Positions 3,515 through 10,266 of a stretch of DNA of 10,358 nt are shown piece by piece (within the stretch, counting starts at the first letter, position 1; every line of letters starts with the position of its first letter). This DNA is from a virus. A program made the translations under genes and the position numbers. The DNA lies in the UHGV virus genome UHGV-1708535. One strand, written 5' to 3'. The notes beneath the pieces were generated by a model. It did not search any database, was not told where the DNA came from, and saw nothing but the letters and a program-made list of their open reading frames with translations.

Positions 3515-4408
3515 TTATTTTTTTGCCTTTTTAGCGGCGAAATACGGCGTCCAGTCACCAGTTTCCAGCGCCTTGGCTTTCAATTTGTCGAGGTTGTTGA
3601 TTACTGCGCCGTTGCTCCCCTTAACTGTCGGGGTTGTGGCTGCCGTGGTTTTTGCTTTTGGCATGATTCTGGCCTTCGATTCGATACGTTCCAGCAGACG
3701 ACCAATTGCTACGGGGTTGGTAGCTTCTGCCAGTTGCTTGCGCAGTTCAGCGTTGCGACCGAGTGCCAGAACAACGATTTCCGGCTTCTCTGACTCAAAC
3801 AGGATCGCGTTTTGTGTCTCGATGGGGATTTCCTCGAGTACGGCCTGTTCTGCTTCCTGATAGCCAGGGACCTTGAGAGCCTTAACACGTTGTTGATATT
3901 TGGATAATCGCTCTTGATAGGCAGCATGAAGCTCCTGTTCCTTCTGCTTGCGAGCCATCTCCTGTTGCTGGTACTTGCCGTTATCCTCTGCCCACTTAGT
4001 CATGCGTTGCTGGTAGATTTCTTCATCGAAACCGATGTCCTCATCATCCAGTTTTGGCATTCGCGGTGGTTGAGTGATTACCGGCTGCTGCTCGACGGGT
4101 TTCTGAGACTGACGCATCAGCTCTTTCAGCTCGCGGTCCTTCTCTTTAATCGTCTTGCGCAGGTGTTTTACCAGTCCATGCTCTGCGCCATCTTCGCTGG
4201 TTGGCGAATCCAGCTTTTCGTCACCAAAGTAGAATTCCTGTTCTGATTCGTCGTCATCAGTTTCAGTAGCTTCCTCTGCATCATTTCCGGAGGGCTTACT
4301 GCCATCTTCTGTTTCGACTTCTTCAGCCAGTTCGACATCATCAGGAATCTGCTCTGATGTATCGGTTTCGATTTCAACTTCTGGTGTGTTTTCTGCCATC
4401 TGGTCCAT
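3515..4408 (-). CDS. Scaffolding protein, P22 gp8-like, 297 aa
   Basis: ORF track 3515..4408; between portal and coat genes; strongly acidic N-terminal ~75 aa, charged helical middle, basic C-terminus (LDKLKAKALETGDWTPYFAAKKAKK) consistent with a coat-binding C-terminal domain; AGGGG Shine-Dalgarno upstream. Confidence 0.85.
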   Translation of the reverse strand: MDQMAENTPEVEIETDTSEQIPDDVELAEEVETEDGSKPSGNDAEEATETDDDESEQEFYFGDEKLDSPTSEDGAEHGLVKHLRKTIKEKDRELKELMRQSQKPVEQQPVITQPPRMPKLDDEDIGFDEEIYQQRMTKWAEDNGKYQQQEMARKQKEQELHAAYQERLSKYQQRVKALKVPGYQEAEQAVLEEIPIETQNAILFESEKPEIVVLALGRNAELRKQLAEATNPVAIGRLLERIESKARIMPKAKTTAATTPTVKGSNGAVINNLDKLKAKALETGDWTPYFAAKKAKK

Positions 4409-6695: not shown

Positions 6696-8111
6696 TCAAC
6701 CTACACCACAAGGAATTGAGTAACTGGAATAGTCGGGTTGCGCAGCCGACTCCGGGCAATGCATACACATCATCAACGCATCAGCCAGGTTAGGAGATGG
6801 GATCCCGAGCTTTTGCTTCATTTCGACCTTAGTCATAAGCTCCAGCTTCCCGTTGTTATTGAATTTGCGCTGAATCTGCGTCAGTTCTGCAAACAGCTTC
6901 TCCAGCATCTTCTCGCCTATCGCTTCTTTGTCGAAACTCAGCATGTCGTCGGGGTCTGCATACTCACCGTGAACAACCGCCCGATATGTCAGATACAGCC
7001 TGTCAGCCAGCGCGTAATAGAATTGCGCTCGCTTATTGCGGAATACATCGCCAATAGTGCGAACATTGTCGCCCTGTACGACTTCATCAGCCCATGCTCC
7101 GGCCTGATATGGCGCATCTTCATCGAATGGCGATTCGCTGCCCTTGAACATCGTGGCGGTGATTTTCTTGCCGGAGAACGCTTCCGTTGTCTGTCTGCGT
7201 AGACCCGCACCAACACCATCACCATCCCACAGGTAATGGTCAGAGCCGTCTTCAATCGCCAGCGAAGTAGCCCAGTCAGCACCCTCGTTGATGTCCATCA
7301 GCAGACCTTCGGCAATGCGCTTAACTACCGAACCGTGACGCGATGCATAACCTTTAGCATCTGGCCCTGTATCTGATGGGTCATGCGCAGAAACAACAGC
7401 GCCTTTCGCTTTCCATCCGAGTTTCTTGTGCGCATCGGTTGCAGCTTCAAGCCATTCACGTTTGATGATTGCCATATCACTTGCGCTTACTGGCTCACCA
7501 AGCCAGATGTGACGATACAGTGTCGGATTTCTGCGTTTGCACTCTTCCATCTCCAGACGGAGAACTTCAGGAAAGTGCGGGTTGTCGGTGTAGTTCACCG
7601 TCAGCAGGCAAATATCATCGGGAGGATTTACGACGAATCGCTGATAGGTATCGTCGAGGATGTTCTTCGGGTTAAAGCTCACCCATATTTCAGAGAACGG
7701 CTTACGGATGGTTGGGATCAGGATATCCCATGATTCCTTCGTTACCGCTTCCGCTTCTTCCACCCAGCAGATATCAATGCCTTCGAGCGATTTAATCTTC
7801 GTCGGGTTGTTTTTGATGCCGTAGAACATGAACTCAGCATTCGTTCCGAGATGACGAATCATGGAACGCTGAATTTCAAACTCAGCCGAATACCCTTCCC
7901 GCTCGATGGTGTCTTCAAGCAACCGGATTACCGAATCGCTGATACTGTTTTGCAGTTCACGAGCGCAGAGAATACGCACAGGCTGTCGGCGCGCCGCTTC
8001 AACAAGCAGCCTCGCAATTGCCCATGATTTACCGCTACCTCGACCGCCTTTGGTGACTTTGTAGCGATGCGCCTCAATGAACGGTTCAAAGATAGGATTA
8101 ATCGAGGTCAT
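6696..8111 (-). CDS. terL: Terminase large subunit (ATPase/nuclease), 471 aa
   Basis: ORF track 6696..8111; Walker A P-loop GGRGSGKS near the N-terminus (KVTKGGRGSGKSWAIARLL); size typical of P22/Sf6 large terminases; ATGA start/stop overlap with the small terminase gene. Confidence 0.9.
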   Translation of the reverse strand: MTSINPIFEPFIEAHRYKVTKGGRGSGKSWAIARLLVEAARRQPVRILCARELQNSISDSVIRLLEDTIEREGYSAEFEIQRSMIRHLGTNAEFMFYGIKNNPTKIKSLEGIDICWVEEAEAVTKESWDILIPTIRKPFSEIWVSFNPKNILDDTYQRFVVNPPDDICLLTVNYTDNPHFPEVLRLEMEECKRRNPTLYRHIWLGEPVSASDMAIIKREWLEAATDAHKKLGWKAKGAVVSAHDPSDTGPDAKGYASRHGSVVKRIAEGLLMDINEGADWATSLAIEDGSDHYLWDGDGVGAGLRRQTTEAFSGKKITATMFKGSESPFDEDAPYQAGAWADEVVQGDNVRTIGDVFRNKRAQFYYALADRLYLTYRAVVHGEYADPDDMLSFDKEAIGEKMLEKLFAELTQIQRKFNNNGKLELMTKVEMKQKLGIPSPNLADALMMCMHCPESAAQPDYSSYSIPCGVG

Positions 8112-8530
8112 TTTCCGAATAGAGTGCTCATCGGTGATGTTTCAATCTGGATTGCGCCGCCGTCCTTACCGACAAGCTCGTTAGTTACCTTGTCGCCATA
8201 CTTACGGGGATTCATTCGGGCCAACGCCCATTTACGGGTATCTACGCGAAGTCTTGCCTTTGCCACCTCAGCAGCATCTGGAATCGCAGTGTCAGCAATT
8301 TCGAATATCTCTTCGAAAATAGAATCAGCTCGTGCCTCAGTTGCCTTCGCGTACTTGTCGCGAAAATCCTCATGCTTTGCCAACCAGCGGAAAACAGTGG
8401 ACTTATCCGGCATACCAGGACGCTTACATACTTTCAGCAGACTTTCGCCAGAAGAAAGCAACGAGCAGATATCGTCAGCCACCTCCGGCATATAATCAGA
8501 GGGGCGACCAGCTTTTGGTTCAGTCGCCAT
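8108..8530 (-). CDS. terS: Terminase small subunit (Sf6 gp1-like), 140 aa from the second ATG (142 aa if the ATG at 8534-8536 is used)
   Basis: ORF track 8108..8536; gene immediately upstream of terL and overlapping it by 4 nt; sequence MATEPKAGRPSDYMPEVADDICSLLSSGESLLKVCKRPGMPDKSTVFRWLAKHEDFRDKY has the HTH-like N-terminal DNA-binding region typical of small terminases. I chose the second ATG (8528-8530) because the GTGAG purine run abuts the first ATG with no spacer; this choice is uncertain. Confidence 0.8.
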   Translation of the reverse strand: MATEPKAGRPSDYMPEVADDICSLLSSGESLLKVCKRPGMPDKSTVFRWLAKHEDFRDKYAKATEARADSIFEEIFEIADTAIPDAAEVAKARLRVDTRKWALARMNPRKYGDKVTNELVGKDGGAIQIETSPMSTLFGK

Positions 8531-8553
8531 ATTCATCTCACTTAGTTGTTATT

Positions 8554-8733
8554 TCAGGCTGAGGACTCTTTCGCGCCTTCAATCAGTGACTGCTTCAGCA
8601 ATTCGAGTGTGCCAATCGCCTCACATAAACTGATTTCACCATCGTAATCATGAATGACGCTTTCCAGCCGCTCGTATAGCTCTTGAGTAATTGGGAATTT
8701 CTTCTCCTTACCAAAATTGATTACGCGGCTCAC
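8554..8733 (-). CDS. Hypothetical small protein, 59 codons, GTG start; possible ribbon-helix-helix-like fold
   Basis: Not in the track (below 60 aa). Open frame from GTG at 8731-8733 to TGA at 8554-8556, GGAG 6 nt upstream of the GTG, 2 nt after the stop of the 80-aa ORF and 17 nt before terS. Translation (V)SRVINFGKEKKFPITQELYERLESVIHDYDGEISLCEAIGTLELLKQSLIEGAKESSA shows a strand-helix-turn-helix pattern reminiscent of RHH proteins; this is pattern inference only. Confidence 0.4.
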   Translation of the reverse strand: MSRVINFGKEKKFPITQELYERLESVIHDYDGEISLCEAIGTLELLKQSLIEGAKESSA

Positions 8734-8734
8734 A

Positions 8735-8977
8735 TCATGCTCCGGTAGTGAACAGGTCTAACGCTTCCTTCGATTTACGCACTGCTTCGATAGTGCGGGT
8801 CGTGATATCTGAATTAGCGCCGCCTGACTGGAAGTGAATTTTAAATAGCTCAAGCTTCAGCTCGTCAGTGCCAATGAACTGAAATGCTTCTTCTGCGGCT
8901 GCGTTCTGGTTCATGACCAGTTTGTAAATCTCTAACTGGAATTTCTGTTCTTCAGTCATGGGAATAATCTCTGCCAT
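8735..8977 (-). CDS. Hypothetical protein, 80 aa
   Basis: ORF track 8735..8977; GGAG 7 nt upstream of the ATG at 8975-8977; same strand and tight packing with neighbours; predicted helical, no family recognised. Confidence 0.6.
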   Translation of the reverse strand: MAEIIPMTEEQKFQLEIYKLVMNQNAAAEEAFQFIGTDELKLELFKIHFQSGGANSDITTRTIEAVRKSKEALDLFTTGA

Positions 8978-9080: not shown

Positions 9081-9455
9081 CTACTGTTCGCTTAGCTTCT
9101 GCTTCAGCAAGTAACCTTCGAGCATCCAGATTTTGTTTACAGCATTCTGCCGGGCAATCTTCCGACCAATTTCTGCATCAAAGTTTTCCGGGCTCGCACA
9201 GGCACTCTCTCCGGTAACGGTGAAGCCATTCTTCAGTACCAATACGCAGAAAGTGAGAAGGTGCAGAGCATCAGGGGTGGCTTCGACATAAGGCTCCGGA
9301 TTATAAATAAGGTCATCTTCTTTAGCCTGGTGGTCACCCTGCGCAGCAGTGAAAAAATGCTCACTGCAAATGAGGCCTTCAATTTTCTCGGGTGTTACAC
9401 GCGGTGCCGTTTTGCCTTTCTCAACGATTTCTTTTTCGATTTGCTGGTCGTTCAT
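9081..9455 (-). CDS. Hypothetical protein, 124 aa, no family recognised
   Basis: ORF track 9081..9455; AGGGG 9 nt upstream of the ATG at 9453-9455; in-frame TGA 16 codons upstream rules out a longer N-terminus; flanked by non-coding spacers of 289 bp and 103 bp. Confidence 0.65.
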   Translation of the reverse strand: MNDQQIEKEIVEKGKTAPRVTPEKIEGLICSEHFFTAAQGDHQAKEDDLIYNPEPYVEATPDALHLLTFCVLVLKNGFTVTGESACASPENFDAEIGRKIARQNAVNKIWMLEGYLLKQKLSEQ

Positions 9456-9744: not shown

Positions 9745-10266
9745 TCAGCACGCGATATCGAGAGTCAACTGCAGTTGCTCGCGCCAGTACTCGACATTTG
9801 CTTCAATAACCGGCTTATCCCATCGCCAGCGAGCCATCTCTCTTGCCCCATTGCTGGCTTTTGATTTCCGGTCATCGCGAATGCGACATGCTTGCTCATA
9901 TTTCTGCTGCTCAGTCAGTTCACCGCGAAGCAGACTATCAATGTGCAGGTCGCACCACACAGCAAAACGAGCATCACACCAACGGGCAAATGCAACTGAA
10001 AGTTTTGGATGTAGCCACGTACCACCACCCCTGTCCTTTCGTGCCTTGCTGGTTTTTACATACCTCGATTGTGAGGGATGTAAAATTTGAGATTCTTTCC
10101 CGGTCAACGCTTCGTCTAAAGCACGAACGTATTCAAGCGTTTCTGCCAAACGCATCCAGTTATCAATGCGTTTCCCAAATCTCTCAGCAACACCTGTGAC
10201 GTTGATCCAACCATCAGTGTTGAAACTGACAATTTCACCTTTGTAGTTAAGTGGCACGATATTCAT
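9745..10266 (-). CDS. KilA-N domain-containing protein, 173 aa
   Basis: ORF track 9745..10266; the translation contains the pattern I associate with KilA-N/APSES-type domains (GGGTWLHPKLSVAFARWCDARFAVW preceded by an N-terminal region NYKGEIVSFNTDGWINVTGVAERFGK); AT-rich codon choice relative to the structural genes. Domain assignment is from memory. Confidence 0.65.
   Translation of the reverse strand: MNIVPLNYKGEIVSFNTDGWINVTGVAERFGKRIDNWMRLAETLEYVRALDEALTGKESQILHPSQSRYVKTSKARKDRGGGTWLHPKLSVAFARWCDARFAVWCDLHIDSLLRGELTEQQKYEQACRIRDDRKSKASNGAREMARWRWDKPVIEANVEYWREQLQLTLDIAC

Follow-up and report, generated by a model that had tools for sequence, protein, structure and literature searches.

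The closest described relatives of the gene considered here are found in the model phages P22, HK620 and Sf6, where a short gene lies between a DUF2560 gene and terS. Its products—P22 Orf59c (NP_597915), HK620 HkbN (NP_112074) and Sf6 gp68 (AAQ12253)—belong to PHROG 3546, a family listed under 'unknown function', and in E. coli genomes the label given by PGAP is 'hypothetical protein'. The searchable literature holds no mention of orf59c, hkbN, their locus tags or their protein accessions; matches to 'orf80' concern an unrelated Stx-phage gene, and DUF2560 is named only in unrelated papers. Public records are uneven in their treatment of the gene. It is unannotated in BTP1 records and in the original P22 record (AF217253), while the records of Salmonella phages 22, 25 and 34 (KR296686-KR296688) place a 'site-specific recombinase' over orf59c, probably in error.

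The window analysed here, a stretch of 10,358 nucleotides from the virus genome UHGV-1708535, is approximately 97% identical to Escherichia phage Kapi1 and other P22-like phages (Lederbergvirus). It is encoded throughout on the minus strand, in the order KilA-N, gp66, DUF2560, the 59-codon ORF under study, terS, terL, portal, a 297-aa ORF, coat, gp4-like and gp10-like (Table 1). The 297-aa ORF between portal and coat (3515-4408, minus) has no Pfam match at E <= 0.001 and presumably encodes a scaffolding protein of the Sf6 type.

The product of the 59-codon ORF matches phrog_3546 over its entire length (E 2.8e-42; residues 1-59 on profile positions 1-59 of 59), and is 98% identical to Orf59c, 97% identical to the homologues of Kapi1 and Sf101, 95% identical to HkbN and 89% identical to gp68. 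Orf59c and HkbN share its length and GTG start, and the genes of P22, HK620 and Sf6 occupy the same place. Family members in P22 and HK620 show single-residue differences only (F7 instead of L7, for example), whereas in Sf6 gp68 D31 is missing and the tail is longer and of different sequence. No match to the ORF was found in NCBIfam or PADLOC, and there is no Rfam match within the window. The ORF is therefore an already known gene, annotated in P22, HK620, Sf6 and Kapi1, with no function recorded for any member. The initial annotation had described it as untracked, which holds only in that it fell beneath the 60-aa cutoff applied there; such a cutoff conceals a genuine gene of P22, HK620 and Sf6. 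The same annotation's reading of a 59-codon GTG-initiated frame with its own GGAG, ending 17 nt ahead of terS, was confirmed from the sequence and the peptide had been quoted correctly, but the strand had to be corrected to minus, as for every gene in the window.

Table 1. Position of the 59-codon ORF and of neighbouring features, in window coordinates
Feature	Position	Strand	Remarks
59-codon ORF	8554..8733	minus	GTG start 8733..8731; TGA stop 8556..8554; homologue of P22 orf59c / HK620 hkbN / Sf6 gene 68 (PHROG 3546)
Shine-Dalgarno GGAG	8740..8743	minus	6 nt upstream of the ORF GTG; within the final DUF2560 codons
DUF2560 gene, 80 aa (P22 orf80 / hkbM / Sf6 gene 67)	8735..8977	minus	PF10834, E 1.1e-43; stop 8737..8735
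Spacer, ORF stop to first terS ATG, 17 nt	8537..8553	minus	23 nt if counted to the annotated ATG at 8530
terS, Sf6 type	8108..8536	minus	PF20901, E 1e-44; neighbour, no part in ORF function
KilA-N gene	10266..9745	minus	in the window, upstream of the gp66-family gene
Sf6 gp66 / N4 gp49 family gene	9455..9081	minus	between the KilA-N and DUF2560 genes
169 nt absent in phage Huey	8564..8732	minus	nearly the whole ORF; sequence comparison with Huey PQ850609.1

Coding evidence and translation signals

The length of the ORF is uninformative by itself, as the window contains 105 ORFs of at least 30 aa; it is conservation, not length, that marks the ORF as a real gene. Conservation was assessed in the best 80 IMG/VR loci from a search with the narrower alignment, all of which are close relatives. 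Exactly 59 codons are intact in all 80, with GTG as the start codon in 68 and ATG in 12. The ribosome binding site and start context, CCGGAGCATGATGTG, is retained in 65 of the 68 GTG-initiated loci. Across 55 distinct DNA versions the variable sites number 17, 10 and 29 at codon positions 1, 2 and 3, and among minority codons the ratio of synonymous to nonsynonymous changes is 31:29 in the frame of the ORF, but 14:42 and 8:46 when the two alternative frames are read. The dN/dS ratio is 0.09 relative to HK620 and 0.15 relative to P22. Relative to a 61%-identical homologue in the P22-like prophage L010, pS is 0.94 (saturated) and pN is 0.26.

A sceptic might suppose that the frame is open by chance, inside a block of DNA conserved as a recombination boundary, and the block does retain 95-97% DNA identity across phages of Salmonella, E. 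coli and Shigella that differ on both flanks. This reading has next to no probability and is refuted by the conservation data: substitutions track codon position, the synonymous to nonsynonymous contrast is specific to the frame of the ORF, the protein remains 61% identical to its L010 counterpart with synonymous sites saturated, and protein homologues extend to approximately 30% identity in unrelated genomic contexts. As judged from these substitution patterns, the ORF is a genuine gene under purifying selection.

A single base (8734) separates the stop codon of the DUF2560 gene from the GTG of the ORF, and because the stop lies only 1 nt ahead of the start, translational coupling between the two is likely. 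The ORF would then be translated via coupling to whichever gene precedes it, DUF2560 or, in some phages, a 95-aa gene. Downstream, a pair of in-frame ATGs separated by two codons (8536 and 8530; MNMATEP...) stands at the head of terS, and public records, including those of HK620 and Sf6, start the gene at the second, giving a product of 140 aa.

The slot between the lysis cassette and terS

The initial annotation had considered a gene of this kind beside the packaging genes to be unusual. Its position is instead explained by a mosaic slot for accessory genes between the lysis cassette and terS, and it is this slot that places the ORF beside terS. In the best 80 IMG/VR loci the genes upstream of the ORF vary and include Rha, gp66, KilA-N, a GIY-YIG nuclease, a Tad2-like gene and hkbL. 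On the other side, the ORF directly precedes terS in all 72 of these loci that reach it, the remaining eight ending earlier, and the adjoining terS is of the P22 type (gp3 type, PF16677) in 36 loci and of the Sf6 type (PF20901) in 36. The terS of the window is 99-100% identical to those of Gally, Sf6, HK620, Kapi1 and Huey.

A Tad2-like (anti-Thoeris) gene lies in the same slot in five of the best 80 IMG/VR loci and just upstream in L010. The window's KilA-N protein has a weak PADLOC match to the candidate defence protein PDC-S22 (E 1.2e-5), and its Sf6 gp66 / N4 gp49-family protein matches phrog_322, listed under 'unknown function' in PHROGs v4. In the record of phage Huey the label 'anti-CRISPR protein' is given to two slot genes (L100 280-780 and 1015-1395), of which one occupies the place of gp66.

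Not all P22-like phages carry the ORF. Phages epsilon34 and L lack it and have orf129 and Dec in its place, and in CUS-3, which also lacks it, DUF2560 is joined directly to terS. The CUS-3 terS (L099 966-1406) begins 2 nt after DUF2560 and is of a third type, related to the Sf6 type solely in the C-terminal 31 residues, which are likely the terL-binding tail; a mosaic joint thus lies inside terS.

The most informative absence is that in Huey (L100, PQ850609.1, 1741-1776), where 169 nt have been cleanly deleted; DUF2560, the spacer and the final 9 nt of the ORF are all still present. Two similar hexamers, TGAGCC and TCAGCC, flank the junction, suggesting deletion by microhomology. When isolated, Huey formed plaques, which were turbid, and was able to lysogenise (PMC11990801). 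Because Huey is viable without it, the ORF is dispensable for growth and packaging on the laboratory host. A frame disrupted without phenotype in related genomes had been named beforehand as evidence that would count against a ribbon-helix-helix (RHH) regulator at this position; this is found in part, in that Huey lacks the ORF and is viable (PMC11990801).

The constant position of the ORF just before terS could instead reflect a role in packaging or in terS expression, rather than shared ancestry. The protein, or the act of translating its frame, would on this reading help terS or the recognition of pac, or set the translation of terS, as the 72 of 72 loci reaching terS and the short spacer of 17-23 nt might suggest. 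P22-type and Sf6-type terS are nevertheless preceded by the ORF equally often, CUS-3, epsilon34 and L do without it, and distant homologues lie far from packaging genes. Huey, which is viable with an Sf6-type terS 99.3% identical to that of the window and no ORF, largely refutes such a role, and its probability is very small. The ORF is better described as an optional gene, restricted to phages and situated in the late operon in the P22-like clade.

Pairing with DUF2560 and the wider family

The block formed by DUF2560 and the ORF occurs in 143 of 5,426 complete genomes, and in 79 of the best 80 IMG/VR loci the two are adjacent, sometimes with a 95-aa gene between them. In the L010 prophage (GCA_033898505.1; 5605-6416) the order is reversed, the homologue of the ORF preceding DUF2560 with a 4-nt overlap. 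In Bas106 the 95-aa gene is flanked by the ORF and a Rha-like gene, and there is no full-length DUF2560 gene.

The 95-aa gene, found ahead of the ORF in Bas106 (L014 1204-1680) and between DUF2560 and the ORF in 12 of the best 80 IMG/VR loci, is in frame with the ORF, with only a TAG and three codons (E-S-S) before the ATG of the ORF. Five database proteins of 158 aa (P0213-P0217) are fusions of the two, in which the TAG has become Q, E or W by three different single-base changes; on sequence comparison, these fusions point to repeated stop loss or to a read-through stop. A further protein of 140 aa (P0218) is a fusion of DUF2560 with the ORF via a 1-nt deletion just ahead of the DUF2560 stop (...EALDLLLPEHDVSRVINLGKEKK...). 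This fusion comes from one assembly and could be a sequencing error.

The initial annotation had raised the prospect of a regulator or antitoxin-like protein. An RHH-class antitoxin would form a toxin-antitoxin-like pair with DUF2560, and the tight coupling of the two genes in both orders, together with the frameshift fusion P0218, is what such a pair might produce. DUF2560, however, mostly occurs on its own (178 phage records, compared with 45 for the ORF), and in Huey it persists alone in a viable phage; conversely, the ORF is found without DUF2560 in Bas106 and in every distant context examined. No conserved partner gene emerges, since neighbours vary between the contexts examined, and neither plasmid copies nor a PADLOC match were found. 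The product also has no C-terminal neutralising extension, as helix B runs to the end of the 59 residues. Nor does the locus resemble that of a regulator: no sigma-70-like promoter was found between 8000 and 10358, no terminator-like site inside or adjoining the ORF and no operator-like repeats nearby above chance. Neither part of the proposal is supported by these observations, and an antitoxin role is very unlikely.

The family extends well beyond the P22 group. A profile search returned 194 matches among 1.84 billion representative proteins, mostly stand-alone proteins of 50-65 aa, and the family amounts to approximately 190 representatives, largely metagenomic. All 129 relatives tested belong to the one PHROG, 3546. 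Relatives made longer by fusion invariably carry the domain at their C-terminus, behind varied N-terminal segments of which several are cysteine-rich or basic, an arrangement in keeping with a module for oligomerisation or binding. Giant proteins of 2,000-5,000 aa (P0067, P0088, P0128, P0133, P0154 and P0172) were rejected as relatives, as only profile positions 22-40 were matched, six to nine times each, and such matches are probably repeat or low-complexity artefacts.

Distant homologues occur in a Providencia phage (nin region) and in Erwinia phage AH03 (early region). Others adjoin recombination genes (Rad52-like/Gp157 or ERF) or a prophage integrase, or share a run of genes with Thy1 and DNA ligase. 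They usually lie mid-run among small early or accessory genes, far from packaging genes and with no DUF2560 nearby. Searches with tblastn using two distant members revealed no further well-studied phage carrying the family, and related-locus searches with the single distant proteins P0099 and P0070 gave no matches.

Predicted fold and comparison with known systems

The product is a 59-residue acidic protein with a net charge of -4, and the median pI of the family is 4.8. Its conserved features are an N-terminal arm (x-V-V-x-L-x-K-E-K-x-F-P), an amphipathic helix, a Y-x-G-x-I-S turn and a hydrophobic second helix, in which nine of the 11 positions between residues 36 and 46 are hydrophobic and Gly41 is 99% conserved; an acidic tail follows. 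The turn, at first read as G-x-S, is G32-E-I-S35 and so has the spacing G-x-x-S, with G32 conserved at 76% and S35 at 80%. Because the hydrophobic second helix cannot be buried in a monomer of 59 residues, the product is predicted to form a homo-oligomer, most likely a dimer. Direct-coupling analysis (247 unique sequences, Meff approximately 160) returned N-terminal gap artefacts as its top couplings and gave nothing usable.

An RHH-like dimer is one form that the oligomer might take, and an RHH-like arrangement is what had been proposed from the sequence pattern. Two AlphaFold monomer models bear on this proposal, and they differ over the N-terminal 16 residues. The first, built from 37 close homologues (pLDDT 69), places strands at residues 2-7 and 11-16 ahead of helices at 17-30 and 36-58, a topology compatible with the RHH fold. 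In the second, built from 129 diverse homologues (pLDDT 89, pTM 0.60), residues 1-13 are coil and the helices span 14-28 and 36-58, helix A starting from Pro14; this higher-confidence model has no ribbon strand and no RHH structural neighbour. Structure prediction, suggested as a check by the initial annotation, gave an RHH-like model from the shallower alignment and a different one from the deeper.

On this proposal, the product would be a homodimeric RHH DNA-binding protein that regulates a phage or host promoter, its strand at approximately K11-T16 pairing with its twin and entering the major groove. By eye, the sequence can be matched to RHH_1, Ser35 taking the N-cap position and Gly41 falling six residues beyond it, and the RHH-like model would permit DNA binding via K9, K11 and K12. 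Profile comparisons do not bear this out: none of 129 members matches any Pfam RHH family at E <= 0.1, and the best PDB profile E-value, 0.79, is to a non-RHH protein. Alignment of profiles by hhalign gave 4.6% against Arc and 0.1% against CopG, the latter being a weak test because the CopG alignment had gathered close relatives only and was shallow (Neff 1.5). Along the supposed ribbon, position 13 alone (F or Y, 80%) is well conserved as a buried residue; a hydrophobic residue occupies position 15 in only 54% of sequences, with Lys at position 11 in 53% and Glu at position 16 in 39%. The net charge and the low pI do not favour DNA binding, and the gene lies mid-operon, away from any promoter or operator repeat, its distant homologues being usually not promoter-proximal. 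The fold guess is plausible, but it finds no sequence or profile link to RHH families and the better model departs from it. An RHH-like dimer is accordingly possible, if on the unlikely side, and the protein cannot be assigned to the RHH superfamily.

On balance, the product is slightly more likely than not an accessory factor that the phage can dispense with, made late in infection and working through attachment to a partner, probably as a homo-oligomer. The ORF would be an optional small gene of the late operon, in the last position of the mosaic slot, and the predicted oligomer would bind its partner as an accessory or host-interaction factor. A part in packaging, in a toxin-antitoxin pair as the antitoxin, or in autoregulation as a classical RHH repressor is less likely.

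A narrower possibility is that the product is a late-acting counter-defence protein, a small acidic oligomer blocking a host immune sensor or effector that is triggered by terminase, portal or capsid. Such a role would suit the small size and acidity of the protein, its patchy presence across near-identical phages, the clusters of small early genes in which distant homologues are found, and the company it keeps in the slot, namely the Tad2-like gene of five of the best 80 IMG/VR loci and of L010 and the two genes labelled 'anti-CRISPR' in Huey. The protein has, however, no homology to any described anti-defence family, and genomic context alone is weak evidence, which leaves this reading rather improbable. 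More speculative still is the idea that the whole family might be an unrecognised class of small acidic oligomers, possibly divergent RHH-like dimers, which neutralise a host immunity factor and which, in P22-like phages, moved into the late operon ahead of the terminase so as to act as the defence-triggering late proteins appear.

For the accessory, partner-binding factor favoured here, the importance beyond annotation hygiene is at present small. The family is nevertheless far wider than the P22 group, with all of its representatives of unknown function, and since Huey is a natural knockout with close carriers in Kapi1, HK620 and Bas106, a phenotype is testable. If the product did prove to be an anti-defence factor or a new variant of the RHH fold, an orphan gene of one of the classic model phages would gain a function. 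'RHH-like' calls from a sequence pattern or from an AlphaFold model of a shallow alignment should be treated with caution, because here a deeper alignment altered the predicted fold.

Among known systems, the RHH proteins—Arc and Mnt of P22, CopG, ParD, TacA, omega and the N-domain of TraM—show no sequence or profile similarity to the ORF family, which is unlike them in its atypical ribbon with acidic residues, its overall acidity, its mid-operon position and its restriction to phages. The small helix-loop-helix oligomeriser NblA (1ojh), whose function is phycobilisome degradation, has a generic fold resemblance at weak Z and no sequence relation. Parallels in distribution and position are offered by other occupants of the slot—Rha, KilA-N, GIY-YIG, Tad2-like, the Sf6 gp66 family, Dec and orf129—which have the same patchy mosaic spread, the same place in the late operon and the same dispensability. 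Their proteins are unrelated to that of the ORF and, unlike them, the ORF, when present, is always the last gene before terS.
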